Source: Thermoanaerobaculia bacterium (GTDB lineage: Bacteria; Acidobacteriota; Thermoanaerobaculia; UBA5066). From it: 64,000 nucleotides of DNA. The stretch is taken from positions 1-64,000 of the forward strand of contig JBBRRY010000015.1 of the NCBI GenBank assembly GCA_038245905.1. Direction: 5' to 3'. The notes under the pieces were generated by a model. It made no database searches. It saw only the letters and a program-made list of their open reading frames with translations, and was not told the origin of the DNA. The position numbers and the translations under genes were made by a program. The first letter of the stretch is position 1. The number at the start of each line of letters is the position of its first letter. Shown here in pieces: positions 4,595 to 52,345 of this stretch.

Positions 4595-7162
4595 CTACGA
4601 CTGAAGGACGGTCTCGAGGCGCGTGACGCGGATGCCGTGCTGTCCCTCGGGCGGGACGCCATATTCCTTCTCGAGGAACTTCTTCGGGGTCGTGGCCGAC
4701 TGTCCCATGAGCGAGAGGCGTTCCTCGCGGGTCTCCCCGTTCGGCAACGTGAACGAATAGACCGCCTCCGTCGCGGCGCGGCCGAGGGACTTCGCCCCCT
4801 TCGGCAGCTCCCGGCAGCCCGTGATCCTGAGACCCGTCGGGAGGCGGTCGTTCACGGCGGCGACGTGCGCGTCCGAAAGCGCGTCGAGGACGTCCACGTC
4901 GAAGAGCTCGTGCTTCGACTCGTGGCCGAGGGGCAGCGCCGGGCCCATGGACATCCGGAGGTGCGGGTTGTAGCCCTCCGTGTAGCGCACGGGCGCGCCC
5001 GAGGCGCGCAGCGCGCGCTCGAGGACGTCCATCGTGTTCCGGTGCGAGAGGTAGCGCGCGTCTCCGAGCTTCTCGAACGTGAGCCGGTACGACCGTGCCG
5101 TCTCGGTGAGCGGGACAGCGAGCGTCCCGCCCGGCTTTCGCCGCTCGTGGAGCGGCTGGAGATCGGGCGTCGATTTCATGCGGTATGCGGCGCCCTTGGC
5201 TTTGTCCGTATAGGCCGAGGGGAGAGAGAGAGGAAGAGAAAGAGGAAAAGAGGATTTTTCTTCGAATGGCAAAGAGGGCGTTTCCGAAGCAGAAATCTCT
5301 TCTCCGAATCCGAATTCCTTCGGCAGCGGGGCCGCGAGGACGATGTCCTCGCCGTTGCCGGGGACGCCGCACGCATAGCAGTGCCCCCACTTGCAGTCGT
5401 CGATCTGCATCTCCTTCAGGGCCTTCTTCCACTCGACGACGAGGAACGGCTTGCGGATGAACGCGTCGACGACGTCCCAGGGAAGGGTCTCCTTGAGGTC
5501 CTTGTCGCGCAGGTGGCGGCTCTTCGGAACGCCAGCCGCGACGAGGGCCTCGTTCCAGCGCTCCCACGAGAAGTGCTCGCTCCACGCGTCGAAGCGTCCG
5601 CCGCGCTTCCAGACCTCGAGAATTGCGCCCCCCATGCGCCGATCGCCGAGCGAGAGCATCGTCTCGATTTCGGCTTCCTTCGGCTCGTGCCACGTCATCT
5701 TCGCGCCCCTCACCGGGCGGAATCGGTCCTTGAGATAGGCGAGCTTCCGGGTGAGGTTCTCGACGCCGTCGAACGCGAACCACTGGAACGGCGTAAAGCT
5801 CTTCGGCACGAAGGATCCGACCGATACGTTCACCGTCGGCTTCACACCGTGCTTCTTGCCCTGGGCGAGGATGTCCTTGACGAGCGTCACGAGCTCGTCG
5901 AGGTCGGGATCAGTCTCCGTCGGGAGGCCGATCATCGTGTAGACCTTGATCATGTCCCAGCCGCGCGAGAAGGCGACGTCGGCGGCCTTCACCATGTCGG
6001 CATTCGTGAATGTCTTGTTGATGACGCGGCGGAGCCGGTCCGACCCCGTCTCGGGAGCGAATGTGAACCCCGACTTACGCACCTCCGAGACCGCGTCCGC
6101 GAGGCCTACGGAGAAGGCCTCGGCGCGCAGGGAGGGCAGCGAAATCGACACCTTCGTCTTCGCAAGCTCCGGGGCGAGGCATGCGACGAGCGGCTCGATC
6201 TGCGAATAGTCGGCCGACGAGAGGGAGAGGAGGCCGACCTCGCTCCAGCCTGCCTCGTTGATGAAGGCCTTCGTGGCCTTCGCGACGTCGGCGGGGTCCA
6301 GCTCGCGCACGGGCCGGTACCAGTAACCGGCCTGGCAGAAGCGGCAGCCCTGCGTGCAGCCGCGCATGATCTCGAGGCCGAGGCGGTCCTGGATGATGTC
6401 GACAGACGGCACCATGGGCTTTGCCGGGTAAACGTCGGCCGAGAGCTTCTCGACCCAGACGCGGCTCGCCTTCTCGGGAACCCCGGGCGCGTTCGGCCTC
6501 GTCGACGCGACGCGGTCGCCGTCATAAAGGACGTCGTAAAGAGAGGGCGCGTAGATTCCCGGACACCCTGCGAAGGCGAGGAGGCGCTCGCGGCGCGGGA
6601 GGCCGCGCGTCGCCGCGACCATCTCGAGAAAGACGGGAAGGGCCTCCTCGGCGTCGCCGATCAGGAAGACGTCGAAGAAGTCGGCGAGCGGCTCGGGGTT
6701 CGCGGTGCACGGACCGCCGCCGATGACGATCGGGTCCGCGTCGCTTCGGTCCGAGGCGAGCACGGGGATGTCCGAGAGGTCGAGCATGTTCGGGACGTTC
6801 GTGTAATTCAGCTCGCTCTGGAGGGAGAAACCGACGACGTCGAAGTCCGAAACAGGGGCAAACGACTCGACCGAGAAAAGAGGGACCTTCTCGCGGCGGA
6901 GCACGGCTTCGAAGTCGACCCACGGGGCATACGTTCTCTCGCAGGCCCACTCCGCGCGCCGGTTCACGATTTCATAGAGGATCTTCGTACCCGTGTGGCT
7001 CATCCCGATCTCGTAGGCGTCCGGAAACGCGAGGCATACACTGACCGACGTGGCGCCGAGATCCTTGCGCGTCACGTTCCTCTCGAGGCCGAGGTAGCGC
7101 CCGGGGCGCTCGACGGCGAGGAGGAAGGGCTCGAAGCGGGGGCGGACGGACGTGTAACGCAC
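4595..7162 (-). CDS. B12-binding radical SAM protein (TIGR03960-like) fused to a TIGR03936/DUF2344-like domain
   Basis: VERPGRYLGLE, FPDAYEIGMS, RGCTQGCRFC (CxxxCxxC), FAPETG, MIGLPTE; C-terminal CKWGHCYAC followed by FEKLGDARYLSH...YTEGYNPH. Confidence 0.9.
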   Translation of the reverse strand: MRYTSVRPRFEPFLLAVERPGRYLGLERNVTRKDLGATSVSVCLAFPDAYEIGMSHTGTKILYEIVNRRAEWACERTYAPWVDFEAVLRREKVPLFSVESFAPVSDFDVVGFSLQSELNYTNVPNMLDLSDIPVLASDRSDADPIVIGGGPCTANPEPLADFFDVFLIGDAEEALPVFLEMVAATRGLPRRERLLAFAGCPGIYAPSLYDVLYDGDRVASTRPNAPGVPEKASRVWVEKLSADVYPAKPMVPSVDIIQDRLGLEIMRGCTQGCRFCQAGYWYRPVRELDPADVAKATKAFINEAGWSEVGLLSLSSADYSQIEPLVACLAPELAKTKVSISLPSLRAEAFSVGLADAVSEVRKSGFTFAPETGSDRLRRVINKTFTNADMVKAADVAFSRGWDMIKVYTMIGLPTETDPDLDELVTLVKDILAQGKKHGVKPTVNVSVGSFVPKSFTPFQWFAFDGVENLTRKLAYLKDRFRPVRGAKMTWHEPKEAEIETMLSLGDRRMGGAILEVWKRGGRFDAWSEHFSWERWNEALVAAGVPKSRHLRDKDLKETLPWDVVDAFIRKPFLVVEWKKALKEMQIDDCKWGHCYACGVPGNGEDIVLAAPLPKEFGFGEEISASETPSLPFEEKSSFPLSLPLSLPSAYTDKAKGAAYRMKSTPDLQPLHERRKPGGTLAVPLTETARSYRLTFEKLGDARYLSHRNTMDVLERALRASGAPVRYTEGYNPHLRMSMGPALPLGHESKHELFDVDVLDALSDAHVAAVNDRLPTGLRITGCRELPKGAKSLGRAATEAVYSFTLPNGETREERLSLMGQSATTPKKFLEKEYGVPPEGQHGIRVTRLETVLQS

Positions 7163-7236
7163 GGGGACTCTCCGAACGGGGCAGTCTAGCGGATCGCTGA
7201 GACGCCGTCGCGACGCGTCGTCAGGCGGTATTCAAG

Positions 7237-7821
7237 TCAGCCGGTCTTCGACTTCCCGACGCCCACGGGGCAGGAGACGCCCGTTCCCCCGATGCCGCAG
7301 TAGCCGTCGGGGTTCTTCGCGAGGTACTGCTGGTGGTAGTCCTCGGCGTAATAGAACTCGGGGGCGGGCAGGATCTCGGTCGTGATCGCGCCGTAGCCCG
7401 CGGTGGCGAGTTCCTTCTGGAACGCGATCTTCGACGCCTCGGCCGCCGCGCGCTGCGCCTCGTCGAAGGTATAGATCCCGGACCGGTACTGCGTTCCGGC
7501 GTCGTTCCCTTGTCGCATTCCCTGCGTCGGATCGTGGCTCTCCCAGAAGACCCTCAGGAGATCCTGGTACGAGACGTGCGCGGGATCGAAAACCACGAGC
7601 ACGGTCTCGTTGTGCCCCGTCCGTCCCGTGCAGACCTCGCGGTAGGAAGGGTTCGACGTCGTGCCCGCGGCGTAGCCGACCGCGGTCGAGAAGACGCCCG
7701 GCACCTGCCAGAACTTTTTTTCGGCGCCCCAGAAGCAGCCCATCCCGAAGAGCGCGCGCCGCATTCCCGCGGGGAAGGGCGGCTCGATCGGATGGCCGTT
7801 GACGAAGTGCGCGACGGGCAT
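7237..7821 (-). CDS. msrA: Peptide methionine (S)-sulfoxide reductase
   Basis: [41 protein letters not shown]. Confidence 0.97.
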
Positions 7822-7935
7822 GGCGTCGGATTCTGCGCCTCGTGCGAGCAGAAGAGAAGCGATCCGTTTGCAGAAACCGAACGGTCGTCCCGGTCGATTG
7901 ACTCCCCGAAGGCAGCGGCCTAGATTGCCGTTCAG

Positions 7936-8328
7936 ATGGCTCTTGACGACAAGGTCCGCGCGTACCTTCGCGAACTCGGCGCCGCGCTCAACGAAGCGGT
8001 GTCCTCCTCGGAGAAGGTGCACGAGATCCTCGGGAAGATGAAGGCCGAGGGTTACGGGGTCTATCTCGTCCTCGACGCGACGGTGGCTCTGGAGAAACGG
8101 GGGCGGAGATCGTCGGCGGCTCTTCCCTCGATTCGGCGCGGCGCGCTGCAGGCGGCCCGTGCTCCCGAGGACGGCGAGGGCGCAACCATCGAGCGTGCGG
8201 TCTTCCAGATAAACGTCAAGGACTTGAGCTTCCTGCGCTCCGTCGGGATCGATCCCACGCGGCCCATCCGCTCCCGCCGCCGCCCGCAGGCCGCCGTGAC
8301 GATCCGGTCCACGATCGCGAAACGCTGA
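7936..8328 (+). CDS. Hypothetical protein upstream of rlmN
   Basis: Good codon usage, ATG start, co-oriented 15 bp upstream of rlmN; no recognised domain. Confidence 0.7.
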
Positions 8329-8343
8329 AGTACCCTGCTCGCC

Positions 8344-9432: not shown

Positions 9433-9434
9433 CT

Positions 9435-10211
9435 TCACCGGGAAAGCCGGACGATTCCAGTCAGGATCCGGCCGGCGGCCGCCCCGTCCCGGCGCCAGGA
9501 AGGGAGATTCTGAGTGCTTGCCGTGCAGGGTCCGCCCGTCACGATGCGCTCGGGGCGAACGCCGCGCGCGCGGAGGGCCGCGAGGTTGAACGCGGCCACG
9601 TCGACGAAAGCCTTTCCGCCCGCGCCAGGCGCGATCGCGCCCTCGGGGGCCCCGCCATACGCCTCGCGGAGCGCGGTGACGACTTCGGGACCGACCTCGT
9701 ACTTCTCGCGCGAGATCGAAGGGCCGAATGCGGCATGGAGGTTCTCCGCCCGTACGCCCTGGGCGGCGAGTGCATCGAGCGCGGCGTCGAGGACGCGCGC
9801 GGCCGTTCCGCGCCAGCCCGCGTGGACGGCCGCGATCCAGCCCGTCTCGGCGTCCGCGAGAACGATCGGAACGCAGTCGGCGGACGCGACGGCGAGGAGG
9901 ACGTTCGGCCGGCAGGTCAGGAGGGCGTCGCCTTCTCCGAGGAGGACGTCCCACCGCTCACGCGGTGGTTCTTCGAAGGTGAGAACGCGGGCGCCGTGCA
10001 CCTGCTTCAGTCTCACGACATCGGCCGCCGGCGCGCCGAGGGCCTCGGCGAGCGCGCGTGCGGCAAGATCGGGGTCGAGCGGGCGCGCGGTCAGGGGTCC
10101 GCGCGTGAACCCGGCCGCGAAACCCGGGACGCCGCCGAGCGACAGACGCGAAACAGCGCTGGCGGGGCTGGCGCCGGCCGAGGTCGCGCGTGCAGGCATC
10201 TCCCGATCCAT
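9435..10211 (-). CDS. pgeF: YfiH/PgeF family (polyphenol oxidase-like / purine nucleoside phosphorylase) protein
   Basis: QVHG, ADCVP, HAGWRG, GPSI, CT...SWRR motifs. Confidence 0.9.
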   Translation of the reverse strand: MDREMPARATSAGASPASAVSRLSLGGVPGFAAGFTRGPLTARPLDPDLAARALAEALGAPAADVVRLKQVHGARVLTFEEPPRERWDVLLGEGDALLTCRPNVLLAVASADCVPIVLADAETGWIAAVHAGWRGTAARVLDAALDALAAQGVRAENLHAAFGPSISREKYEVGPEVVTALREAYGGAPEGAIAPGAGGKAFVDVAAFNLAALRARGVRPERIVTGGPCTASTQNLPSWRRDGAAAGRILTGIVRLSR

Positions 10212-10264
10212 CTTCCCATTCTAAGAAGATCTTCTTCTCTTCTTCCCCTCTAGAATCCCGCTGC

Positions 10265-10879: not shown

Positions 10880-10899
10880 GGAAGGGGCCTCCGCCCCGG

Positions 10900-13551: not shown

Positions 13552-13650
13552 GGACTCTCCTCCTCGAGAGAACGCAAACATGACCTGGAGTTGGCGGTAC
13601 TTTGGGACATGTACCCGGTCGAGGTCAACGCCTTCGCAGAACTTCGACGC

Positions 13651-23773: not shown

Positions 23774-23775
23774 GC

Positions 23776-28682: not shown

Positions 28683-29186
28683 TCAGCTCGTGAGGCCGTC
28701 CTCCTTCTGCAGGATCTCGTTCAGGAACCAGCGGCTCTTCTGGTGCACCTGGACGAGGCGCGTGTATAGGTCGGCCGTTCCAATGTCGCCCGCGTCCGTC
28801 GCGACCTCACAGTCGTCGTGCATCTCTTTGATCACGACGTCGAGCGTGGCGCGGGCCTCGGCGATCATCTCTTCGAGCGAGAGCTTGCCCTTCGAAGGTT
28901 CCACGCTGGCGCTCGGGAGATAGTCGGCCGGATCGCCCAGCGGGGCGCCCCCCACCATGATGGCGCGTTCGGCGAACTCGTCGATCGTGTCGTACACGAG
29001 CGTCGCTTGCTCGTCGAGCATGAGGTGGATGTCGCGAAAGAGGGGCCCGTAGCTGAGCCAGTGGTATTTCTTGTAGTTGAGGTACGCGACGAGCGCGTTC
29101 GCCTGTTGCCGCTGAAGAGTGCCGACGACGGCCGCCGAGCCGCCGCTCTTGTTCTTCTTCTTCTGCTTCTTGTCTTTCTTGGCCAT
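28683..29186 (-). CDS. dps: Dps DNA-protection ferritin-like protein with Lys-rich N-terminus
   Basis: YHW, FRDIHLMLDEQ, IDEFAER, GDIGTADL; N-terminus MAKKDKKQKKKNK. Confidence 0.92.
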   Translation of the reverse strand: MAKKDKKQKKKNKSGGSAAVVGTLQRQQANALVAYLNYKKYHWLSYGPLFRDIHLMLDEQATLVYDTIDEFAERAIMVGGAPLGDPADYLPSASVEPSKGKLSLEEMIAEARATLDVVIKEMHDDCEVATDAGDIGTADLYTRLVQVHQKSRWFLNEILQKEDGLTS

Positions 29187-29207
29187 GAATCCTCCGAGAT
29201 CCTTAGA

Positions 29208-29222
29208 TTAGACTATGTCTAA
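29208..29222. promoter_or_regulatory. Palindromic operator upstream of dps (Fur/PerR/Irr-like)
   Basis: TTAGAC-TAT-GTCTAA in an AT-rich patch 21 bp upstream of the dps ATG. Confidence 0.55.
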
Positions 29223-29235
29223 AATAAGGTCAAGC

Positions 29236-29475
29236 TCAGGATTTCTTGATGAGACGCACGATCGCGACGAGCACGATGGCGCCGACGAGCCGCACGAGAA
29301 AATCGCCCAGCAGGCCGCCGCCCATCACGAAGCGGCCGAGGAGGAATCCGCCTATCCAGCCGCCGACGATCCCGAGCAGAACGTCGACGAGGAGGCCATA
29401 GCCGCCGCCCTTCATGATCTGTCCGGTCGCCCAGCCCGCGAGCGCGCAGAGCGCGAGTTCCACGATCAGCCACAT
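29236..29475 (-). CDS. GlsB/YeaQ/YmgE (transglycosylase-associated) membrane protein
   Basis: 79 aa, three Gly-rich TM helices: LAGW...[21 protein letters not shown]...GAIVL. Confidence 0.9.
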
Positions 29476-38775: not shown

Positions 38776-39669
38776 CTAGACGGATCTTCGGCGCATCTCG
38801 CCAAGCGTGATCAGGACGACCGCCCACACGATCACGGCCGCCGCCAGAAGCGTTCTCGGGGTGACCGGCTCCGCCGCGAGAGCCCAGCCGAGAAACACGG
38901 CCACGGCCGGATTCACGAACGCGTAAGTCGAAACGAGGGCCGGGGCCGCCACGCGGAGGAGCCACATGTAAACCGTGAAGCCGAGGAGCGAGCCGAATAC
39001 GAGAAGGTAGAGGAGGGCCGCCCAGGAACGCGCGGAGACGTGCGCGGGCGAGAAGCGGGTCCATTCACCCGTCGCGAGAGAAAGGGCGAGAAGCAGGCCC
39101 CCGCCCGCGAGCATCTGCAGCGCCGTCGCCTGAAGCGGTGACGACGCTGGTGTGAAGCGGCGAGAGAGAACGGAGCCGAGGGCCCACGTGAACGCGGCGA
39201 AGAGCACCGCGGCGGCTCCGAGGAGGTCGATGCGATCGCCGCCGAGCCGTGCGGGGCCGAGCAGGAGCGCGACGCCCCCGAGGCCGAGGGCGACTCCGGC
39301 GAGAGCGCGGCCGCCGGGCGCATGCCGCTCGGGCGGCAGCGCCTGCAGGAGGACGATGAAGAGCGGCTCGATCGCGATGAGGAGAGCGGCGAGGCCCGAC
39401 GAGATGCGTTGCTCGGCCCAGACCACTCCGCCGTTTCCGCAGAGGAGCAGCAGGGCGCCGCACGTGAAGGCCGGCGCGAGGTCGCGGGCCGCGATGCGGG
39501 GTGCTCCCCTCGCCTTTGCGACCGCGAGGAGGATCGCGCCGGCGGCGGCGTAGCGGACACCCGACATCACGAAGGGCGGGATCGACTCGAGTCCGAACCG
39601 GATCGCGAGGTAGGTGGATCCCCAAACGACGTAGAGGACGAGAAGGCCGAGGCCGACGCCGCGTTTCAC
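38776..39669 (-). CDS. EamA/DMT transporter (YedA-like)
   Basis: YVVWGSTYLAIR, SSGLAA, YAFVNPAVAV; GTG at 39669 overlaps the upstream stop. Confidence 0.92.
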   Translation of the reverse strand: MKRGVGLGLLVLYVVWGSTYLAIRFGLESIPPFVMSGVRYAAAGAILLAVAKARGAPRIAARDLAPAFTCGALLLLCGNGGVVWAEQRISSGLAALLIAIEPLFIVLLQALPPERHAPGGRALAGVALGLGGVALLLGPARLGGDRIDLLGAAAVLFAAFTWALGSVLSRRFTPASSPLQATALQMLAGGGLLLALSLATGEWTRFSPAHVSARSWAALLYLLVFGSLLGFTVYMWLLRVAAPALVSTYAFVNPAVAVFLGWALAAEPVTPRTLLAAAVIVWAVVLITLGEMRRRSV

Positions 39670-41426
39670 GGCGCGATCATCGCCTCCCACACGGCGCGCG
39701 ACATTCTCTTCGCCGCCTCGTAAACGCGCGCGCGCCCCTCCTCGTTCTTCCCGAAGTCGTTCGCGAGGAGGACGAGGACGTACTCACGTCCGTCCGGCAG
39801 GCGGACGATCCCCGCGTCGTGCTGGACGGAGGAGATCGACCCCGTCTTGTGGGCGACGATGGCGCCCGACTGCGGGTGGAGGCCGGCGGGGATCTCCTCG
39901 TTAAACGTCTGTCCTGCGAGGATCTCCCAGGCCTTCGATTTCGCGGCGGCGGAAAGCTTTGGCGTCCGGACGGCGGCCTCCATGACCGCGCCCATGCCGG
40001 CCGCGTCCGTCTCGTTGTTGAGACCCTTGTCGAACGCCTTCGAGTCTTCGACGCAGCGCCGGACGTGGACGGTCGGCGCGCCGAGTGCGTCGGCGAGCTT
40101 CTGGACGTTCTCGGGCGCGACGAGCGAGAGGAGAATGTTCGTCGCGAGGTTGGACGAGCGGACGATCATCTCGGTCGCAAGGAACTCGACCGTGGCCGTC
40201 TTCCCGAGGTGCGCCACGGTAGGGCCGTCGTTGTCCTCGAGGCCGATCGAGAAGAGCGAACCGTCGACGAGGCTCTTGAACTCGTTCTTCACGGGCAGCT
40301 CGTCGGTCAGCCGAAGGCTTCCCGCGTCTACGCGGCGGAGCACCTCGAGGAGGACGGGCGTTTTCATCGTTGAGGCGGCGTGCATGACCAGGGAGGGATC
40401 CTTTGAAAGGGAAAGACCGCTGGCGAGATCCTTGAACCAGATGCCGAAGCGCGCCCCGCTCCCGTCGGCGATCGAGTCGAGCGTGCGCTGCAGGGCGCGC
40501 ACTTTCGTCACGCTGAGACGCGGCCCCTCTTCACCATCTAAGGAATTTCTCTTCAATCTCCTCGCATAACGAAACAGAGGCTTCAGGAACGGGCTGTCGA
40601 ACGGCGTGATCTGGACGCCAGGGACGTTGTGCCTTGTGGACTGAAGGACCGTTCCGTCGCCGATCCACATCGCCTCGTGGTCGATCTTGTCCGGCGTCCC
40701 GAAGAAGAGGAGGTCGCCGGGCTGGAGCTTCTCGAACGCGACGGGGACGAGCTGCGGGTCCTGAAACGCTTGTTCGGAGCTGTTCCTCTTCAGCGTGACG
40801 CCGTGCTCCGAGAAGATCCGCGCCATCAGGCCGGAGCAGTCGAACCCGAGGGGCGTCGTCCCGCCCCACGTGTAGGGCGCGCCGAGGAAGCGCCTGCCGA
40901 AGGAGATCCAGGAAGAGGGGGAGGAGAGAGGGGAAGAAGAGGGAGCTTCTTTGAAGGGTAAGAAGGAGACGTCGCACGCGGCGATGTAACCGCTGCGCCC
41001 GTCCGGCAGGACGACCCGCACCCACGAATACGGGTCCCCCTCTTTACCTTCAAAGAAATCCGAAAAACCCAGGGTTGCTCCAACCGGGGCCGTGAGAAGC
41101 GGCTTCTGCTTTGTGAACGAAGGTGCCGCGTATACGTGGGCGAAGTTGGACGTCACGCGCGCGACCTTCGCTCCCGCCGCCGGCGGCGCGTCGCCCCGGC
41201 GGAGTGCCCGCTCGGGGATCCACGCAACCTCGCCCGCGGCCGTCCGTACCTTCGCGAAGCCGGCGGCGTCTTCGAGGACGGTCACGCGGTCGCCTAGGAT
41301 CGCCTGGTCGTCCACGCTCGACGTCTCGTCCGGCCTCACGAAGAGGTCCTCGACGGCGGTGACGACGACCGCCGTTTTCGCCGGAGAGAGGGAAAAGAGG
41401 AGGAAGGCTGCCGCAAACGTGCGCAT
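39666..41426 (-). CDS. SH3b x2 + NlpC/P60 (YkfC-like) + class A beta-lactamase-fold serine hydrolase fusion
   Basis: Signal peptide; PYTWGG...FDCSG, HEAMWIG; AASTMK (SxxK), SSN, HKTG. Confidence 0.88.
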   Translation of the reverse strand: MRTFAAAFLLFSLSPAKTAVVVTAVEDLFVRPDETSSVDDQAILGDRVTVLEDAAGFAKVRTAAGEVAWIPERALRRGDAPPAAGAKVARVTSNFAHVYAAPSFTKQKPLLTAPVGATLGFSDFFEGKEGDPYSWVRVVLPDGRSGYIAACDVSFLPFKEAPSSSPLSSPSSWISFGRRFLGAPYTWGGTTPLGFDCSGLMARIFSEHGVTLKRNSSEQAFQDPQLVPVAFEKLQPGDLLFFGTPDKIDHEAMWIGDGTVLQSTRHNVPGVQITPFDSPFLKPLFRYARRLKRNSLDGEEGPRLSVTKVRALQRTLDSIADGSGARFGIWFKDLASGLSLSKDPSLVMHAASTMKTPVLLEVLRRVDAGSLRLTDELPVKNEFKSLVDGSLFSIGLEDNDGPTVAHLGKTATVEFLATEMIVRSSNLATNILLSLVAPENVQKLADALGAPTVHVRRCVEDSKAFDKGLNNETDAAGMGAVMEAAVRTPKLSAAAKSKAWEILAGQTFNEEIPAGLHPQSGAIVAHKTGSISSVQHDAGIVRLPDGREYVLVLLANDFGKNEEGRARVYEAAKRMSRAVWEAMIAP

Positions 41427-41451
41427 CCCGGGATTCCACCATAATCCGGCC

Positions 41452-42603
41452 ATGACGCAGCCTCCTTTCCCCTCCCTCTCCCGCCGTGAACTCATTTTCT
41501 CGTCCGCTGCCGCCGCCGCGGCTTCCGCGCTGCCCGAGGCCCTGCTCGCGGAGGCTCCTTCGGGTCCGTCCCCTTCGTCGCCCTCTCTCTCCTACCGCGC
41601 TCTTCCCTTGAAGCTCGCACACACGTGGACGATCGCGCGCGGTTCTTCGGACACGAAGACGAACGGTCTCCTGTCGCTCTCGGGCGAAGGCGTGACGGGA
41701 TACGGCGAGGCCGCCGCGAACAAGCGCTGGAACCAGAGTTTCGAGACGTCGGAGGCGGCGTTCGCGAAGGTGAAGGCGGCCGTCGCGGGGCTTTCGCCCT
41801 GGGAGCACCTGACGTGGCTCGAGCGTGCCGAGAAAGAGGCCGGGCCCGACAGCGAAGTCGTCGCCGCGCTCGACCTCGCGCTATGGGACTGGAAGGGCAA
41901 GAGGCTGAACCGTCCGGTTCACGAGCTTCTTGGAATCCCGAAGGGCCGCATGTCGATCACGACATTCTCGATCGGGATCGACACCGCGGAGGTCATGAAG
42001 CAGAAGGTCCTGGAGGCCGCGGCGTTTCCGAGGTTGAAGATCAAGATCGGCCTCCCGAACGACGAGGAGAACATCGCGGCGATCCGGTCCGTGACCGACA
42101 AGCCCATCACCGTGGACGCGAACGAGGGCTGGACGAGCGTGGACGAGGCGAAGAAGAAGATCGCGTGGCTGAACGGCGTCAAACCCCTCTTCCTCGAGCA
42201 GCCCATGCCCGCGGCGATGGACGGCGAGATGGTGAAGCTCAAGGGCCTCGCGACGTTTCCGATCCTGGGCGACGAGGGGGTGCTGCATGCGTCCGACGTG
42301 GCCGCCAAGGCCGGGCTGTTCGACGGCGTCGTCCTGAAGCTCGCAAAGTCGGGCGGCATCACCCGTGTCTACGAGATGGCGGCCGTCGCCCGCGCCCACG
42401 GCCTCAAGCTGATGCTCGGCTGCATGATCGAGTCGTCGCTCGGCATCGCGGCGGGCGTCGCCGTGGGTCCGCTCTTCGACTGGCTCGACATCGACGGCAA
42501 TCTCCTCCTGGCGTCAGACCCGTTCAAGGGCCTCTCGATCGCGAGCGGCCGGTGGGCGCTGCCCGAGGGACCCGGCCTCGGCGTCGTTTTCGCGGGCGTC
42601 TAG
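41452..42603 (+). CDS. L-Ala-D/L-Glu dipeptide epimerase (enolase superfamily) with Tat signal
   Basis: SRRELI twin-Arg motif; GYGEA, KIKIG, DANEGW, EQP, GDE, GCMIES, DIDG. Confidence 0.92.
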   Translation: MTQPPFPSLSRRELIFSSAAAAAASALPEALLAEAPSGPSPSSPSLSYRALPLKLAHTWTIARGSSDTKTNGLLSLSGEGVTGYGEAAANKRWNQSFETSEAAFAKVKAAVAGLSPWEHLTWLERAEKEAGPDSEVVAALDLALWDWKGKRLNRPVHELLGIPKGRMSITTFSIGIDTAEVMKQKVLEAAAFPRLKIKIGLPNDEENIAAIRSVTDKPITVDANEGWTSVDEAKKKIAWLNGVKPLFLEQPMPAAMDGEMVKLKGLATFPILGDEGVLHASDVAAKAGLFDGVVLKLAKSGGITRVYEMAAVARAHGLKLMLGCMIESSLGIAAGVAVGPLFDWLDIDGNLLLASDPFKGLSIASGRWALPEGPGLGVVFAGV

Positions 42604-43493: not shown

Positions 43494-43533
43494 GGTGGGG
43501 TGGGATCCTATAACGAACGCTTGGGGCGGTTTG

Positions 43534-45129: not shown

Positions 45130-45154
45130 CGTTCTCCCGTTCTAACATGGACGA

Positions 45155-46273: not shown

Positions 46274-46274
46274 G

Positions 46275-47219
46275 TCAGTCCGTGTCGAGGATGCGGCGCG
46301 GGACGTTCGAGGCCATCCGGCGGGCCGATTCGGGCGGGAGGCCGAGCGATGCGGCCCGGCTGACGCAGTCGTCGAGGAGCGCCGTCGAGCCCGCGAGCGC
46401 GCCCGACGCGTTGCGCGCGGCCCCGCCCTTCACGGTCAGCGTCTCCCCCCAGACCGCGTAGTCGCCGTCGGCCAGGCCCGCCGCGGGCATCGCGTCGCTG
46501 ATGAGGGCGACGCGGTCTTCTCCCTTCACCTTCAGGACGAGTCGCAGCATCTCCGGCGCGAGGTGCTGCCCGTCCGCGATGACGTCGACCGTCACGCCGT
46601 CCGTCACGAGGCCCCAGCCGATCGGGCCGACATCGCGGTGGTGGAGCGGCTTCATCGCGTTGCCGAAATGCGTCATGTGCCGCGCACCGGCCGCGAGCGC
46701 GGCGTCGAGCGTGGAGGCGTCGGCCTCCGTGTGGCCGATCGAGACGACGAACCCACGCTTCACGAACTCCTTCACGACCGCGATGCCTCCGGGGATCTCG
46801 GGCGCGAGCGTCGTCATCCCGCGCCCCGGAGCGCTCGATGCGATCTCGAAAAACGCGCCGAGCGCGAGGGCGTCTCTCCCGTCGAGGAAATCCTCGCGGT
46901 GGAGAGCACCGCAGCGCGCGCGGGAGACGAACGGCCCCTCGAAGTGAATGCCGAGCGGCAGCGCGCCCTTCCCGTCCCCCGGCCGGCGCGACCGAATCCA
47001 CGCGGAAAGCCGCGCCACGGCAACGGCCATCTCCGGCAGCGGCAGAGGGATGAGCGTAGGCAGGAAGCCAGAGACGCCGCGGGACGAGAGCCCGAACGCG
47101 AGCCTGTCCATGTCGGCGGCCGACGCCGTGACGACGTCGATGCCGAAAGCGCCGTGGATGTGGAGGTCGATGAAAGCAGGGGACGCAGAGGAAGACGAAT
47201 TCTTTGTTCCGGAGCTCAC
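46275..47219 (-). CDS. nagA: N-acetylglucosamine-6-phosphate deacetylase
   Basis: DLHIHG, HFEGPF, TLAPE, GHT, THFGNAM, IADGQH, ISDAM, LAGS. Confidence 0.92.
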   Translation of the reverse strand: MSSGTKNSSSSASPAFIDLHIHGAFGIDVVTASAADMDRLAFGLSSRGVSGFLPTLIPLPLPEMAVAVARLSAWIRSRRPGDGKGALPLGIHFEGPFVSRARCGALHREDFLDGRDALALGAFFEIASSAPGRGMTTLAPEIPGGIAVVKEFVKRGFVVSIGHTEADASTLDAALAAGARHMTHFGNAMKPLHHRDVGPIGWGLVTDGVTVDVIADGQHLAPEMLRLVLKVKGEDRVALISDAMPAAGLADGDYAVWGETLTVKGGAARNASGALAGSTALLDDCVSRAASLGLPPESARRMASNVPRRILDTD

Positions 47220-48073
47220 GGGAGGTTTCGCTCCGGAGGCGAGGTCAATGCGGCGGCCACGTTTGAAGATTGCTTAGAAAGGTAATCGTCCGCGGCCTCG
47301 CACGAAAGTCCCCATTTCGCCGAGACGAGCGCGGTGGGCAGCCGCCACCCACACCTTCTAAGAAAATCTTCCGCGTTCTCTTCGGACGTGCCCGCAATGT
47401 CCCGGACGATCCTCACGGCGCGCGTCTTCAGTTTCTCGTTCGTCGGCTGCATCGCGACCATCTCGTCCCGGTAGACGAGGCCGCGCCTCGCCATGACGGC
47501 GGTCGAAAGCATGTTGAGGGTGATCTTCTGCGCGGTTCCGGCCTTCAGGCGGCTGGACCCCTCGAGGACTTCCTTTCCCGTGTCGAGAAGGATGGCGATG
47601 TCGGCCAGCTTCTCGATCGGCCCGCCCGGGCGGCACACGACGGCGATCGTGAGGGCGCCCGCGCTCTTCGCGTGCTCCAGCGCGCCGATCACATAAAGTG
47701 TCACCCCGCTCGCGGCGATGCCGACGACGGCGTCCTTCCCCGTGAGGCCGGCGATGGAGAGGTCTTTCCCGCCGGCATCGGCGTCGTCCTCCGCGCCCTC
47801 CACGGCCTCGAACATCGCCGCCCGCCCGCCCGCGAGGAGCGCGACGACGAGCGAAGGATCCGTCCCGAAGGTGGGCGGAAGCTCCGCGGCGTCCAACGCG
47901 CCGAGGCGGCCGCTCGTCCCCGCTCCGGTATAGAACCACCGGCCGCCCGTCTCGAGCCGCTCGGCGATCGCGTCGGCCGCGCGCGCGATCGCGGGAAGGG
48001 CGGCCGTGAGCGCGACCTCGACCGCCCGATCGGCTTCGTGGAGACGCGTGACGAGATCGAGCGAATCGCTCAT
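47216..48073 (-). CDS. murQ: N-acetylmuramic acid 6-phosphate etherase
   Basis: GAGTSGRLGALDAAELPPTFG, EGAED, GSSRLKAGTAQK, NEKL. Confidence 0.95.
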   Translation of the reverse strand: MSDSLDLVTRLHEADRAVEVALTAALPAIARAADAIAERLETGGRWFYTGAGTSGRLGALDAAELPPTFGTDPSLVVALLAGGRAAMFEAVEGAEDDADAGGKDLSIAGLTGKDAVVGIAASGVTLYVIGALEHAKSAGALTIAVVCRPGGPIEKLADIAILLDTGKEVLEGSSRLKAGTAQKITLNMLSTAVMARRGLVYRDEMVAMQPTNEKLKTRAVRIVRDIAGTSEENAEDFLRRCGWRLPTALVSAKWGLSCEAADDYLSKQSSNVAAALTSPPERNLP

Positions 48074-49011
48074 GAAGGACTCGTTTCGGTCGTGAGGGCG
48101 AGGCGGATCGCGCCCATTTCCGGGGAATGGGCGGCGGGACCGACGCGCGCGAGCGGGGCCACGCGCCGGATCGCTTCGGCGAGAGGGTCCGTGACGAACG
48201 CGCCGGCCGCGAAGACGCCGCCGATGGTCGCGACGGGAAACGAGGCGCTCTCGAGGCCCAGCTTTTTCACGACCGTCACGACGTCGAGCGCGAGATCGTG
48301 TCCGGCCTCCGCGAGGATGCGCCGCGCCTCGCCATCGCCCGCGCGGGCCGCCGCGAGAACGACCGGAAAATACGCCGCGATGTCGGCGGCGCCGTCCTCG
48401 GAGCGGTAGATTCTCTCGAGCAGCTCGGTCAAAGACGAGACACCGCCCGTGGAGAAGAGAAGCTCCTTGATCGCCGTCGGGGGACCGCGGCCGTCGAGCT
48501 CGCGAACGACGGCGACGAGGCCCTGCCGGGCGATGGCATAACCGCCCCCTTCGTCGCTCAGGAGGGGTCCGAATCCGCCGGCGCGCGCCGTGGCGCCGCC
48601 TTCTCCCTGCCCGAAGGCGATGGCTCCCGTGCCTGCGATGACCACGACCGCAGGCGCGTCGACGCGATCGGGAGCCGCGCCCGAGAGAGCGATCCGCGCG
48701 TCGCTCGTGAGGAGGACGCGGCTCTTCACGAAGACCGACTCGAGTGCCTTGAGGAGGGGCTGCCGGTCCCGGATCGAGTCGACGCCGGCAAGGCCCACGA
48801 CGACGGCTTCGGGGGGCACATCCCCGAGATCCGCCGCGAGAAGAGCGTCCGATGCAGCTTCCTGGACGGATTCCACGACCCGGGGGAGGGGGCGGGTGGC
48901 CACGTTCCCGGGGCCGGACGCGCCCCGGCCCAGCGGCGCGAGGTCCTTTCGAGCGACGACGGCGCGCGTACGGGTCCCCCCGCCGTCAATTCCGATGAAG
49001 AACGGCCCCAC
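48070..49011 (-). CDS. BadF/BadG-type amino-sugar (GlcNAc/MurNAc) kinase
   Basis: GIDGGGT, SDARIAL, IAGTG, GGFGPLLSDEGGG; cotranscribed with murQ and nagA. Confidence 0.88.
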   Translation of the reverse strand: MGPFFIGIDGGGTRTRAVVARKDLAPLGRGASGPGNVATRPLPRVVESVQEAASDALLAADLGDVPPEAVVVGLAGVDSIRDRQPLLKALESVFVKSRVLLTSDARIALSGAAPDRVDAPAVVVIAGTGAIAFGQGEGGATARAGGFGPLLSDEGGGYAIARQGLVAVVRELDGRGPPTAIKELLFSTGGVSSLTELLERIYRSEDGAADIAAYFPVVLAAARAGDGEARRILAEAGHDLALDVVTVVKKLGLESASFPVATIGGVFAAGAFVTDPLAEAIRRVAPLARVGPAAHSPEMGAIRLALTTETSPS

Positions 49012-49086
49012 GGAGCCAGCTTAGCAAGGGCGGCCAGATTCACCCGCATCAGTTCCGGCGATCCGCGGGCGCGTTAGATTCACCCC

Positions 49087-50403
49087 ATGACGTTCGACAC
49101 CGACTGGAAGACCCGCTACTCCCGAAAGGTCGCGACGGCCGAAGACGCCGTACGTGCCATCCTCCCGGGCCGCCGCATCCTGATCGGCTCCGGCGCCGGC
49201 GAACCGGGGCGCCTCGTCGAGGCCCTCGTGTCGCACGCCACGCAGCTCCGCGGAAACGAAATCGTCCACCTCATGACGCTCGGGGCCGCCCCTTACGTCG
49301 CCCCGGGACTCGAGGACCGCTTCCGCCACATGGCGTTCTTCATCGGGTCGAACGTGCGGGGCGCCGTCCAGGAAGGACGCGCCGACTTCCTGCCCGTCTT
49401 CCTGTCCGAGATCCCGCAGCTCATCACGAGCGGGCGTCTCGGAGTGCATGCGGCGCTCGTACAGGTGAGTCCGCCCGACCACCACGGATTCGTAAGCCTC
49501 GGGGTTTCCGTCGACATCGTGCGGGGTGCCGTGGACACGGCCGACATCGTCCTCGCCGAGGTCAATCCGAACATGCCGCGGACGCTCGGCGACTCTTTCC
49601 TCCACGTGGACCGCATCGCGCACCTCGTGCCCGTGGACGACCCGCTGCACGAGCTCAAACCCGAGCCGCTCGACGAAGTCTGCCGGCAGATCGGGCATCA
49701 CGCCGCGCAGCTGATCCAGGACGGGTCGACTCTGCAGATGGGAATCGGGCGCATCCCGGATGCGGTCATGAGCGGCCTCCGGGAGCGAAGCGACCTCGGG
49801 ATCCACACGGAGATGCTGTCCGACGGCGTCATGGCGCTCGCGAAGGCCGGCGTGATCACGGGCCGGAAGAAGACGCTCCTCCCGGGCAAGATCGTCACGT
49901 CCTTCATCATGGGCACGCGCGCTCTCTACGACTGGGTGGACGACAACCCCGTCGTCGAAATGCGCCCTTCGAGCTTCACGAACGACTCGTTCCAGATCGC
50001 GCGAAACGACAAGATGGTCGCGCTGAACTCGGCCCTTGCCGTTGACCTCACCGGCCAGGTCGCGGCCGACTCGATTGGCGGGCGCTTCTTCTCGGGCATC
50101 GGGGGCCAGGTGGACTTCATCCGGGGCGCCGCGCGCAGCAAAGGCGGCAAGCCCATCATCGCCCTGCCGTCGACCGCCAAGAACGGCGCGATCAGCCGCA
50201 TCGTCCCGGTGCTCGAGGAAGGGGCCGGTGTCGTGACGAGCCGCGGAGACATTCACTACGTCGTCACGGAGTACGGGGCCGCGGATCTGTGGGGCAAGAA
50301 CATCCGCCAGAGAACGGAAGCGCTCATCGGCATCGCGCACCCGGATTTCCGCGCCGACCTCCTGGCGAGCGCGAAGGCCCGGAAATACGTATTCGCCGGC
50401 TGA
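49087..50403 (+). CDS. Acetyl-CoA hydrolase/transferase family (4-hydroxybutyrate CoA-transferase-like)
   Basis: NPNMPRT, LQMGIG, GIHTEM, VDLTGQV, SGIGGQVDFIRGA, VVTEYG. Confidence 0.93.
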   Translation: MTFDTDWKTRYSRKVATAEDAVRAILPGRRILIGSGAGEPGRLVEALVSHATQLRGNEIVHLMTLGAAPYVAPGLEDRFRHMAFFIGSNVRGAVQEGRADFLPVFLSEIPQLITSGRLGVHAALVQVSPPDHHGFVSLGVSVDIVRGAVDTADIVLAEVNPNMPRTLGDSFLHVDRIAHLVPVDDPLHELKPEPLDEVCRQIGHHAAQLIQDGSTLQMGIGRIPDAVMSGLRERSDLGIHTEMLSDGVMALAKAGVITGRKKTLLPGKIVTSFIMGTRALYDWVDDNPVVEMRPSSFTNDSFQIARNDKMVALNSALAVDLTGQVAADSIGGRFFSGIGGQVDFIRGAARSKGGKPIIALPSTAKNGAISRIVPVLEEGAGVVTSRGDIHYVVTEYGAADLWGKNIRQRTEALIGIAHPDFRADLLASAKARKYVFAG

Positions 50404-50422
50404 CCCGCGCTAACCTCGCGGC

Positions 50423-52345
50423 GTGCGCCGCCGGCTCCCGACGTTTCTCGCGCCTCTCCTGCTCCTTCTCGCCGCCTTCGCCCTGAAGACGGCGCTGCTC
50501 GAGCATTTCGACACGCATCCGCTCCTCCAGCCCGCGGGAGACATGGACAGCGGCGTTTATGCGCGGCTCGCGGCCGACGTCGCACGCGGCGACTTGCTCC
50601 TCCGCGGGCCGGGTCCCGTCCCGTATTTCGTCTCGCCGCTCTACATCTATTTCCTCGCAGCGGTTCACGCGCTCTCGGCGGGCTCGCTGTTCGCGGCGAA
50701 AGTCGTCCAGATCGTCCTTGGGACGGCCGTCGTTGGGCTCGTCTGGGCGATGACGCGCCGGCTCTTCGACGACCGCGCCGCGCTCGTCGCGGGAATCCTC
50801 TACGCGCTCACCGGCATCGTGTCGTTCCACGAGATTCTGATCTTGCAGGCCGCGCTGGATCCCTTCCTGACCGCGCTCTTTCTTTTCCTGCTGGCGGTTG
50901 CACTCAGTCCAGACCAGCCGAAGACTTCTTTGAAGGTGAATGAGGAGAAGGCAGCAGCATGGGCGGCGGCCGGGGCCGCGCTGGGCCTTTTCGCGTTGAA
51001 TCGCCCCAACGTTCTCCCATTCGCGGCGGTCGTCGCAGTCGGACTCGTCGTGCGGGGCATCGGCGCACGCGGCGAGCGTCCTCTCTCTCCTCCTTTCAAA
51101 GAGAATCCTCTTCGAACGCTGGGATTTGCCGGGGCCTTCCTCGCAGGCACCGCCGCGATCGTGGCGCTGCCCCTCGCGCGCAATCTCATCGTCTCCGGCG
51201 AGCCCGTCCTGATCTCCTCGCACGGCGGCCTGAACCTCCTCGTCGGTAACGGGCCCGGCGCGAACGGGGTATACCGATGGCTGGACGGCATCACGCCGTC
51301 TGTCTCCGGCCAGGCCGCGGACGCGAAAAAGCTCGCGGAACGTGAGACGGGACGGCCGCTCACGACGCGCGAGGTGTCGTCGTTCTTCGCGCGGCGCGCA
51401 TTTTCCTGGATGGCCGAACAGCCCCAGGCGGCGGTACGCCTCTTCGCCCGGAAAATCTGGTACGTCTTCTCGAACGACGAGCTGTCGCTCAATTTCAGCG
51501 CGACGTGGTACCGCCGCGAGAGCGTCCTCCTCCGGCTTCTCGCCGTGGGGCCGTGGCTGCTGGTGCCGCTCGGGATGGCGGGCCTCGTTCTCGCCGTCCT
51601 CGGCGCAGGGAGATTCCCGGGGCGTGTCGCGGGGATCTGGGCTTCCTTCGTGCCGGTCTACGCGCTCCTCGTCGCCGCGTTCTTCGTGGCGACGCGCTAT
51701 CGGCTGCCCCTCGCAGTCCCACTCGCGGCCGGAGCGGGCGGGGCGGTGTCGATCGTGTGGACGTCGCTCCTGAAGCGAGACGGGAAGCGCGACCGGAAGC
51801 CAGTTCTCGTAGCCGCATGCGTCGCCCTGCCGTGCCTGCTCCTCGCGCTCTGGCCGACCGGCGTCGACGACGGCTCGTCGGAAGAAGAAATGCAGTGGGT
51901 GCTCGCCCTGATCGAGACGGGCGATGTCTCCGAGAGCACGACGCGCCTCCACACGCTCGCGAAAACGTATCCGATGCCGGGCGTCCTGTGGTTCCGGGCG
52001 GGCCAGGCCTGGGCCGCTGCCGGCCGCCTCGACGACGCGATCTCCGCTCTCGAGCGGGCGCGCGCGATCGACCTCGAGCAGAAGGAGACGAGAGGCGTGC
52101 TCGCGGCCGCACGCGAGAGGCGGGGAATGGAGCGCGCGACGGCGGGAAAGATGTCGGACGCGGCGGCGGACATGGAGGAGGCCGCGCGCCTCGACCCGGG
52201 CAATCCGGCCATCCGGGTGAACCTCGCCGCGATTCTGGCGGAGCAGGGAGATAGTGCGCGGGCACGCTCTCTCGCGTCGGAGGCGCTCGCGCTTCGGCCC
52301 GGCTACGACAAGGCCGAGGCGCTCCTCCGGGCCCTTCCCAAATGA
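50423..52345 (+). CDS. GT-C (PMT/ArnT-like) membrane glycosyltransferase with C-terminal TPRs
   Basis: DSGVY, PLYIYFLA, RPN, RN...GGLNLLVGN, RYRLP; TPR helices at the C-terminus. Confidence 0.82.
   Translation: MRRRLPTFLAPLLLLLAAFALKTALLEHFDTHPLLQPAGDMDSGVYARLAADVARGDLLLRGPGPVPYFVSPLYIYFLAAVHALSAGSLFAAKVVQIVLGTAVVGLVWAMTRRLFDDRAALVAGILYALTGIVSFHEILILQAALDPFLTALFLFLLAVALSPDQPKTSLKVNEEKAAAWAAAGAALGLFALNRPNVLPFAAVVAVGLVVRGIGARGERPLSPPFKENPLRTLGFAGAFLAGTAAIVALPLARNLIVSGEPVLISSHGGLNLLVGNGPGANGVYRWLDGITPSVSGQAADAKKLAERETGRPLTTREVSSFFARRAFSWMAEQPQAAVRLFARKIWYVFSNDELSLNFSATWYRRESVLLRLLAVGPWLLVPLGMAGLVLAVLGAGRFPGRVAGIWASFVPVYALLVAAFFVATRYRLPLAVPLAAGAGGAVSIVWTSLLKRDGKRDRKPVLVAACVALPCLLLALWPTGVDDGSSEEEMQWVLALIETGDVSESTTRLHTLAKTYPMPGVLWFRAGQAWAAAGRLDDAISALERARAIDLEQKETRGVLAAARERRGMERATAGKMSDAAADMEEAARLDPGNPAIRVNLAAILAEQGDSARARSLASEALALRPGYDKAEALLRALPK

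Follow-up and report, generated by a model that had tools for sequence, protein, structure and literature searches.

The window analysed here, the 64-kb stretch at positions 1-64,000 of contig JBBRRY010000015.1, belongs to a Thermoanaerobaculia genome (G000 below; 3.80 Mb, 96.4% complete) in which one short low-GC element recurs in and beside genes of very different kinds. In the window these are a gene with a radical-SAM and a DUF2344 part, a gene of the Cu-oxidase_4 family, a gene with NlpC/P60 and beta-lactamase-family domains, a SIS-domain gene and a gene for a PMT_2/TPR membrane protein (table 1). Each copy of the element is referred to as an arm, and copies that face each other as a pair. 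The initial annotation had described a dispersed low-GC motif in unrelated genes and had given 12 sites for it; ten of them are strong matches to our weight matrix (scores 21-42), and two, 5281-5305 and 47179-47210, are not. It listed the copies singly and missed the pairing. It had noticed no copies between 16.7 and 25.3 kb, which fits with there being no match scoring at least 6 between positions 10246 and 27247.

Table 1. Arms of the window and the two sites of the initial annotation that do not match the weight matrix.
Feature	Positions	Strand	Core start	Score	Location
Arm	5239..5278	-	5258	40.3	Linker from the radical-SAM part to the DUF2344 part, gene 4595-7162 (-)
Site without matrix match	5281..5305	+		-3.3 (best)	
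Single arm	10207..10246	+	10219	42.2	Divergent spacer, directly before the start codon (ATG at 10211); gene 9435-10211 (-), Cu-oxidase_4 family
Left arm of pair 40399/40536 (cores 137 bp apart)	40380..40419	-	40399	21.8	Start of beta-lactamase-family domain, gene 39666-41453 (-)
Right arm of pair 40399/40536	40524..40563	+	40536	32.9	Linker from NlpC/P60 to beta-lactamase domain
Left arm of pair 40947/41049 (102 bp)	40928..40967	-	40947	37.3	Linker before NlpC/P60 domain
Right arm of pair 40947/41049	41037..41076	+	41049	25.9	Between SH3 and NlpC/P60 domains
Site that is not an arm	47179..47210	-		-1.5 (best)	
Left arm of pair 47271/47356 (85 bp)	47252..47291	-	47271	21.0	C-terminal tail, SIS-domain gene 47216-48073 (-)
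Right arm of pair 47271/47356	47344..47383	+	47356	35.3	
Left arm of pair 50926/51095 (169 bp)	50907..50946	-	50926	28.9	Loop of PMT_2/TPR membrane protein, gene 50423-52345 (+)
Right arm of pair 50926/51095	51083..51122	+	51095	26.5	

The arm is one asymmetric element of ~35-40 bp, in which a head rich in pyrimidines is followed by the core TTC-D-AAGAAA and then by a CT-rich tail whose length varies among arms. It is palindromic in the 9-nt core only, and its strand is G-poor over the whole length. Arms were defined as matches that score at least 18 against a weight matrix built from copies across the genome (information content 30.6 bits). By this definition there are 657 arms genome-wide, approximately one per 5.8 kb, compared with 9 in a third-order Markov simulation scored with the same final matrix. 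Inside called genes 488 arms were counted, whereas 78, 82 and 79 were left after synonymous codons had been shuffled within genes, an approximately sixfold excess over the codon-shuffled expectation that the initial annotation had proposed as a yardstick. The most over-represented 9-mer of the genome is TTCTAAGAA/TTCTTAGAA, with 149 occurrences against 2.4 expected from base composition (3.80 Mb), and low-GC patches occur 48 times per 100 kb. The motif is over-represented on both strands, with much the same count in either direction in each of the genus's 29 genomes. Each of these 29 genomes carries between 120 and 528 matches, which argues against the assembly artefact that had been considered as an explanation; contigs from a public sequencing run, which may be the source of this assembly, cover two arm pairs without difference. 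The motif is thus real and not an artefact of assembly. Literature searches for Thermoanaerobaculia, for intragenic repeats and for the core 9-mer returned nothing on the arm element.

The arms are mostly organized in facing pairs, usually ~100 bp apart. A head-to-head partner at a distance of 50-250 bp was found for 480 of the 657 arms, and among neighbours within 300 bp the order '-+' is present in 197 of 222 cases, '+-' in 9 of 199, '--' in 33 of 90 and '++' in 33 of 87; tandem arms occur as well. What lies between two partners is ordinary host sequence: the interiors of 194 pairs have a host-like GC content of 0.70, only 7 pairs of interiors are similar to each other, and the interiors align with proteins of the outgroup. 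An element with conserved ends and an interior inserted as a whole (a MITE) is ruled out by these unique interiors. Recent copy-and-paste finds no support either, since the outer flanks are alike (at least 80%) in only 26 of 215,496 pairs of arms. Partners resemble each other no more than random arms do (z = 0.8, 2.1, -0.2 and -1.2 by region), and this is also true if G-U pairing is permitted (z = 1.0 and 0.1), so that the consensus is maintained in each arm separately. Selection for a hairpin finds no support, as partners do not covary. Minimum-energy folds nevertheless join the two arms of 150 among 211 units, as would happen in single strands, and this keeps a reading at the level of RNA or single-stranded DNA in consideration. 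The spacing of pairs has neither helical nor codon phase (p = 0.16 for 10.5 bp, p = 0.11 for 3 bp), the best of the periods tried being 9 bp with an uncorrected p of ~0.01. Without helical phase, a rigid loop that joins two bound protomers is less plausible.

According to our own crude gene caller, 492 of the 657 arms (75%) are located within genes, where their orientation relative to the host gene is balanced (256 versus 236). Translation passes through arms in each of the six frames, and a core base that would create a stop codon is replaced only where it stands in frame. Arms are enriched in intergenic DNA and in genes of weak codon bias, the residues they occupy are poorly conserved, and their frequency in the genes of strongest codon bias is four times lower. 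Along the genome they are clustered, with a spacing CV of 1.29 compared with 1.00 ± 0.06, and 36 bins of 20 kb are empty where 17.5 were expected. Clustering and rarity in strongly biased genes are as they would be for an element that is tolerated or driven, and a cellular function is not required to account for them. Fifteen genes have arms on both sides. The 14 of these that were scanned (a 52-aa gene was left out) include 10 with ordinary Pfam families of housekeeping type and 4 with no Pfam family, and no transposase or nuclease was found among the 14.

Comparison with orthologues was based on 14-16 congeneric genomes with ~74-91% DNA identity per aligned stretch (86% in the best long match). 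Among 120 combinations of arm and genome, the arm is kept in 97, weak in 14 and lost in 9. Arms are kept via substitution or small in-frame length changes, the latter mostly within the simple-sequence tail, and at one and the same site the encoded peptide, the reading frame and the tail length differ between species. The window illustrates these modes. The arm at 40524..40563 is kept in 14 of 14 congeners, with a tail length and a reading frame that vary among them, and its partner at 40380..40419 has a length change in none of the orthologues compared. The arm at 47252..47291 was written by substitution, there being no indels in 16 congeners and 4 outgroups, and the one facing it, at 47344..47383, is kept in 16 of 16 congeners at unchanged length. 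By contrast, the arm at 50907..50946 adds residues relative to the outgroups, and in 4 of 16 congeners a gap takes the place of the one at 51083..51122; at the latter arm, exactly positions 51079-51111 (33 bp, in frame) are missing from a related environmental population. Two arms have further peculiarities. The long purine tail (plus strand) of the arm at 5239..5278 extends back to ~5222, and the non-matching site at 5281-5305 may represent a degenerate partner of this arm, with overlapping heads; the core variant that bears on this site, TCCGAAGCA, is present in 6 of the 657 arms. The single arm at 10207..10246, read on the minus strand, places its purine head at the position expected of a ribosome-binding site.

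The motif is restricted to a pair of sister genera. Against the counts in the genus, the sister genus has 6-72 matches per genome, with arms decaying in two of its genomes and with 7 and 6 matches in G052 and G207, and 26 genomes of eight other genera in the family are at control level. An exact 12-mer of the motif gives the same picture: it is present in every one of 11 genomes of the genus and in a single one from the sister genus, and counts are 0-4 in the remaining 189 of 201 class genomes. At the places occupied by arms, outgroup genera give matrix scores below -8. The concern that orthologues of other lineages might carry the same peptides is thereby settled, other genera having neither the DNA motif nor the peptides.

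Six-frame translation, avoidance of in-frame stops, the sixfold excess over shuffled codons, absence from outgroups and retention of sites whose peptides change all identify the motif as a signal at the level of DNA. It is not a protein motif, which is ruled out by the use of six frames and by the different peptides that one site encodes in different species. The core of the earlier inference holds: selection or drive acts on the signal as DNA, independently of what the protein does. What reads this signal can be proposed with less assurance. We give a probability of roughly 40% to the reading in which the arm is a recognition element read in trans, as duplex DNA, by a lineage-specific factor, with the facing pair as its usual unit. 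The working unit would usually consist of two head-to-head arms around 50-250 bp of ordinary host DNA. The factor, presumably a protein, would act on double-stranded DNA, recognise each arm separately and be sensitive to its direction; it could be composed of two protomers that are obliged to face each other, or it could be an enzyme that tracks along the DNA from the arm. Selection on DNA, or a biased process of equal persistence, would keep the signal, which would be laid over coding sequence where the protein tolerates it, namely in linkers, loops and weakly biased genes. A more far-reaching version is conceivable but doubtful. In it, a DNA system that is sensitive to direction and has not been described before would have its chromosomal sites in these pairs, and selection for the sites throughout the genus, even in essential genes, would make them a second layer of information over the protein code.

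A driven motif of the uptake type could produce many of the same features. Under such an uptake or recombination drive, the DNA-uptake machinery of the two genera would prefer the arm, arm-like alleles would be passed on more frequently through transformation, and arms would build up by substitution at places that the proteins tolerate. The arms of the SIS-domain gene, written at unchanged length, are consistent with such a process, as are the presence of arms in both orientations and all frames, their position at poorly conserved residues, their enrichment in weakly biased genes and intergenic DNA, and a lineage-specific occurrence with the same sites in related species and decay in the sister genus. 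The distribution also recalls DUS of Neisseriaceae and USS of Pasteurellaceae, which are likewise short lineage-specific motifs over-represented on both strands, read in several coding frames and generated by substitution. PMC2817400 reports that uptake sequences favour poorly conserved genes and residues and are absent from genes that have no homologue in related genomes. The arms differ from DUS and USS in being paired head to head at 50-250 bp, longer, provided with compositional flanks, clustered rather than even, and less dense. DUS and USS are denser than one copy per 5.8 kb. Uptake sequences are not known to be strictly paired head to head or clustered. An uptake model has no place for the head-to-head rule; a single unit without obligatory partner is not what was found, given how many arms have a facing one. 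The initial annotation had suggested a search for competence genes, and ComEC and ComEA-like (HHH_3) genes do exist. They are present equally in genomes with and without arms and do not separate arm-bearing from arm-free genera, and they were rejected as candidates for the reader. Overall, we consider uptake drive rather unlikely; it stays a candidate, like the nucleoid-protein site that the initial annotation had also put forward.

A second alternative is a non-autonomous mobile or gene-converting repeat, with an enzyme acting in trans that inserts or refreshes arms, with pairs as its two ends, and with in-frame copies surviving in genes. REPs are extragenic and each REP is itself a palindrome, whereas three quarters of the arms lie in genes and are translated, no palindrome extends beyond the 9-nt core, and the spacer is unique host sequence. 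Rickettsia palindromic elements (RPE) insert as whole units of ~150 bp and encode a conserved peptide; what is shared here is no more than two arms of ~35 bp, all six frames are read and many arms are written by substitution. There are also likenesses to these families. Inverted doublets constitute the architecture of REPINs, and REP/BIME/REPIN sequences, mobilised by RAYT transposases, are described in PMC3337134 and PMC3116915 as present in hundreds of copies that are mostly inverted doublets. With regard to the hairpins of REPINs, doublets are present here and their arms would pair in 150 of 211 folds, but no complementarity specific to the partner was seen. RPEs, according to PMC10969869, are repeats read through in frame within unrelated metabolic genes. 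Furthermore, some arms are insertions, as seen from the additional residues and gaps in the pair of the PMT_2 gene and from the population that is without 33 bp at one arm, and tandem arms and clustering also fit a mobile repeat. It is opposed by interiors of unique host sequence that align with outgroup proteins, by arms that share nothing past ~35 nt, by the occupation of the same sites across the genus with length changes mostly in the tail, and by the housekeeping character of the arm-flanked genes, with no transposase among those scanned. In addition, the Y1 transposase (RAYT, PF01797) has 0 matches in G000, in a search whose control was positive in 6 of 14 genomes. We consider a mobile repeat improbable.

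The pairing of arms in folds, together with the fact that a pair reads alike on both strands (purine arm, interior, pyrimidine arm), raises the question of whether the signal acts in RNA. In that case the transcribed pair would fold into a long stem or provide a G-poor entry site for Rho or RNase, with effects on mRNA processing, polarity or antisense transcripts. The G-poor arm strand is consistent with such a role, and so is the position of intergenic arms, 110 of 158 of which are located at co-directional gene junctions, compared with 55% of intergenic bases. However, there is no compensatory change between partners even with G-U pairs allowed, a stem needs no specific conserved core, unpaired arms have no strand bias relative to their host gene (62 versus 58), and a search of the 64-kb window against Rfam gave 0 matches. 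Among public sequencing runs, no RNA run was listed as a match. We regard an RNA element as quite improbable. Least credible of all, and indeed barely so, are intragenic invertons, in which a site-specific recombinase would flip the segment between inverted arms and thereby recode the gene or switch it off: the arms are inverted repeats around 50-250 bp inside genes, like those in a preprint on intragenic inversions (10.1101/2023.03.11.532203), but inversion about the cores leaves the frame open in 66 of 147 intragenic pairs compared with 1775 of 3000 random length-matched segments, many hosts are housekeeping genes, and a strand-changing joint was found in none of the joints listed for four runs, in contigs, which drop rare forms.

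Two further known systems resemble the arms in part. The first is HIP1 of cyanobacteria, which according to PMC5861425 is hyper-abundant, retains orthologous sites inside ORFs as well as between them, is argued to be kept by selection, and has a function that is still debated. Retention of orthologous sites inside ORFs is shared by the arms, in the proportion of arm-by-genome combinations given above. HIP1 is an 8-bp palindrome tied to orphan methylases (PMC4390886), whereas the arm is asymmetric, ~40 bp long and paired, and the one methylase family tested (N6_N4 methylase, PF01555) does not track arms, being absent from G000 and from all 8 sister-genus genomes; it was therefore rejected as the reader. 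The second is the Ssn nucleases with their NTS/SRM repeats; in PMC11893778 these repeats number in the hundreds, lie around genes and are the targets of a dedicated, site-specific Ssn enzyme. The difference is that a small GIY-YIG gene of the Ssn type was not found in G000, where the only PF01541 match is in a 614-aa frame. Judging from its length and the N-terminal position of the match, we take this frame to be UvrC. ParB (ParB_N) was also considered as a reader and rejected, as it is found alike in genomes with and without arms.

What would follow from these pairs depends on why they are kept. On the one hand, if they are functional, the constraint on hundreds of protein-coding positions would come from a DNA signal and not from the protein, which is rare, and their clear polarity rule should point to a definable reader. 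On the other hand, if the element is driven, it would add a third kind to the motifs of the uptake or drive type, one from outside Proteobacteria and cyanobacteria, and would be relevant to the coexistence of such motifs with coding constraints. The gradient of matches, from the genus through the sister genus to the control level elsewhere in the family, offers a comparative route to the reader. Moreover, arms create low-GC patches of rare codons and ORFs that look fused, which can lead to wrong gene calls and annotations in this lineage.

Some observations concern the surroundings of the arm-bearing group, whose hosts are sediment bacteria. Matches to a 15-mer were obtained in 84 viral contigs, a single match in each, which is chance level by a rough estimate, and none of the viral contigs had several matches. 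In 200 kb of a sister-genus genome (G140) no AT-rich repeat was seen, and low-GC patches number 5 per 100 kb. An equally long stretch of a genome from another family (G130, 200 kb) contains a different element, which is arranged in tandem heptamer arrays and not in facing pairs.

The 9-mer most over-represented relative to base composition in the genome (3.80 Mb in 113 contigs, GC 0.678, completeness 96.4%) is TTCTAAGAA together with its complement, observed 149 times against 2.4 expected. Alignment of these 149 copies yields an asymmetric element, here termed an arm, which consists of a head rich in pyrimidines, the core, an A and a CT-rich tail, in that order; in the head, a C lying two bases 5' of the core is nearly invariant. 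The refined profile amounts to 30.6 bits with the core TTC-D-AAGAAA, and G makes up at most 11% at each position from 10 bases before the core to 6 after it. With an iterated weight matrix 657 arms were detected genome-wide at a score of at least 18, compared with nine when the final matrix was applied to a third-order Markov simulation. The excess also holds against codon-shuffled controls, the test that the initial annotation had called for: 488 arms in genes fall to 78-82 when synonymous codons are permuted within each gene so that neither the protein nor the codon pool changes. In the window, where GC runs from 0.64 to 0.71, the sites cited in the initial annotation are low-GC patches; ten of its twelve are genuine matches scoring 21-42, but two are not (Table).

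The initial annotation missed that the copies are arranged in pairs. Neighbouring arms lie within 300 bp of each other in 197/222 cases for the facing ('-+') arrangement, as against 9/199 for '+-', 33/90 for '--' and 33/87 for '++', and 480 of the 657 arms have a facing partner (score at least 10) at 20-300 bp, with heads inward and tails outward. In 211 pairs the cores lie a median of 114 bp apart (5-95% range 51-244 bp), and neither a 3-bp nor a 10.5-bp phase was seen in this spacing. The interiors (194 analysed) have a GC content of 0.70, are mutually unrelated except for seven similar pairs, and can be aligned with orthologous proteins of genera lacking arms. Therefore, the pair brackets ordinary host sequence, and a MITE is ruled out.

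According to our own codon-usage gene caller (3253 genes), 492 of the 657 arms lie inside genes, compared with 5563 of 6000 random positions, which means that arms are enriched in intergenic regions (25.1% vs 7.3%). Within genes they are evenly spread, occupy all six reading frames and occur in either orientation, as had been proposed (256 vs 236); unpaired arms likewise favour neither orientation (62 vs 58). T occupies the fourth core position in 109 of the 177 arms not wholly within a called gene and in just 4/111 and 1/70 arms in the two frames where T would create a stop codon. Arms are therefore translated, and the ambiguous position in the initial consensus reflects stop avoidance. The arms of the window are found in linkers between domains and in loops, as suggested earlier, or close to the edge of a domain, their host genes being radical-SAM/DUF2344, SH3-NlpC/P60-beta-lactamase, SIS-domain and PMT_2/TPR membrane protein genes. 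With arms masked first, their density is 2.53 per 10 kb in the lowest coding-score quintile and declines to 0.61 in the highest; GC3 shows a like trend.

In the genomes compared, the element is restricted to the genus and its sister genus. A class-wide sample of 201 genomes was searched for the exact 12-mer: each of the 11 genus genomes has 45-138 copies, one sister-genus genome has 16 and the other 189 have 0-4. In 63 genomes of the family, a looser pattern has 120-528 matches in 29/29 genus genomes, the present one included, 6-72 in 8/8 sister-genus genomes (the two lowest 7 and 6) and 0-6 in the 26 that belong to eight further genera (controls 0-5). Its presence in 29 separately assembled genomes refutes an assembly artefact. 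No AT-rich repeat was found in 200 kb of a sister-genus genome, and 200 kb of an other-family genome has a different element, tandem heptamers, whose arrays precede a conserved AAAACCGA-like end at about 16 loci.

The eight arms located from 40.3 to 51.2 kb were compared with 14-16 other genomes of the genus, at a DNA identity of roughly 74-91% per aligned stretch (best long match 86%). Of 120 arm-by-genome cells, 97 keep the arm (score at least 18), 14 are weak and nine have none; all outgroup genera score below -8 at the same places. Both arms of the SIS-domain gene were made by substitution alone, with no gap in 16 congeners or four outgroups. In linkers the arm is kept and its tail length, core variant and reading frame vary between species, one genome having a tandem double arm. 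The membrane-protein pair contains extra residues relative to outgroups, and one of its arms is absent with a gap in 4/16 congeners; contigs of a related environmental population (sequencing runs X2 and X3) lack exactly 33 bp at this arm, in frame. Substitution and small in-frame length changes thus both occur, most of the length change falling within the simple-sequence tail, and the position of the arm is kept far better than the peptide it encodes. Contigs of run X1, which may be the source of the assembly, are identical across the pairs at 47.3 and 51.0 kb.

Considering that the core is specific and conserved, that partners evolve independently (partner arms are no more alike than random arms) and that neither strand is preferred with respect to transcription, we tentatively favour, at a probability of about 0.4, recognition of each arm separately by a putative sequence-specific factor that would bind duplex DNA and be sensitive to arm direction. 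An uptake-type drive (cf. PMC2817400) would account for arms written by substitution, for their tolerant positions and for their confinement to a lineage, yet it leaves the polarity rule unexplained and is a somewhat doubtful alternative. A mobile repeat resembling REPINs (cf. PMC3337134, PMC3116915) or Rickettsia palindromic elements (cf. PMC10969869), to which doublets and insertions point, is unlikely, given that interiors are unique, that copy signatures are lacking and that no transposase was found (no Y1 match in the genome). A role at the RNA level would be consistent with the strand symmetry of the pair, and when units are folded as single strands the arms pair with each other in 150/211, with interiors exceeding random genic segments in stability only slightly (-0.394 vs -0.370 kcal per nt); however, partner arms are no more complementary than random arms even with G-U pairs allowed, so covariation is lacking, and such folding does not need the conserved core, which makes this role rather improbable. 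Invertons (cf. 10.1101/2023.03.11.532203) are very improbable, since inversion between arms would keep the frame open less often than inversion of random segments.

Units are clustered (spacing CV 1.29 vs 1.00 +/- 0.06; 36 empty 20-kb bins vs 17.5 expected), with arm-free stretches of up to 60-78 kb in a genome where units lie about 6.8 kb apart on average. One such stretch, on contig C3, looks like it holds an ATP-synthase operon, judged by gene lengths, and therefore arm-free DNA is not simply foreign. Several arm-associated genes are fusions of units that other bacteria encode separately. One 770-aa frame contains two LptF/LptG matches, a HisS-like unit is fused to HisG and dehydroquinase to shikimate dehydrogenase, and SH3, NlpC/P60 and beta-lactamase units are combined in another. 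The junctions often have an arm at or close to them. The gene caller left out a 503-aa ORF, and gene boundaries at about 41.1-41.6 kb are provisional. Next to some arm tails are short runs in which a second AT-rich unit, similar to TCCGAAT, stands in two or three successive copies. The window's two longest low-GC stretches are not arms but ordinary-looking intergenic regions with no matrix match of at least 10, the sole nearby match scoring 6.2.

Table. Positions of features in the window (contig C15, bases 1-64000) and on other contigs of the same genome
Location	Feature	Remark
Window 5281-5305	Initially cited site	Score -3.3
Window 47179-47210	Initially cited site	Score -1.5
Window 4595-7162	Fusion gene	
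Window 39666-41453	Fusion gene	
C1:218243-220555	Fusion gene	
C17:30066-32842	Fusion gene	
Window 41092-42603 (+)	503-aa ORF	Coding-like GC3 0.86; overlaps 5' end of 39666-41453 gene call
Window 5296-5322	Second AT-rich unit	
C1:14402-14444	Second AT-rich unit	
Window 29144-29255	Low-GC stretch	
Window 55143-55239	Low-GC stretch	
Window 51079-51111	Segment at membrane-protein arm	Missing in X2, X3 contigs
Window 40461-40548	Putative replacement over arm	X2, X3
Window 40912-41037	Putative replacement over arm	X2, X3
C3:48777-126765	Arm-free stretch	
C2:2736-70960	Arm-free stretch	
C20:1-60622	Arm-free stretch	
C12:35120-35794 (-)	ComEA-like protein	224 aa, secreted

Candidates for the factor were sought among known families. 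Ssn nucleases, site-specific enzymes that read a repeat of their own (PMC11893778), were considered as candidate arm readers, but no small GIY-YIG gene was found; the genome has a single GIY-YIG match, within a 614-aa frame. ComEC and ComEA-like HHH_3 proteins do not track the arms, being found alike in genera with and without them; nor does ParB_N, with two copies in most family genomes, arm-bearing or not, or an N6_N4 methylase, which is sporadic and absent from this genome. The 14 scanned genes flanked by arms on both sides included no transposase or nuclease (ten ordinary Pfam families, four with none), no motif enrichment was seen in viral contigs, and no description of the element was found in the literature searched. 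The secreted ComEA-like protein has two HHH_3 domains with an arm scoring 45.5 in the Ser-rich linker between them; the sister genus and two other genera likewise have two-domain forms.
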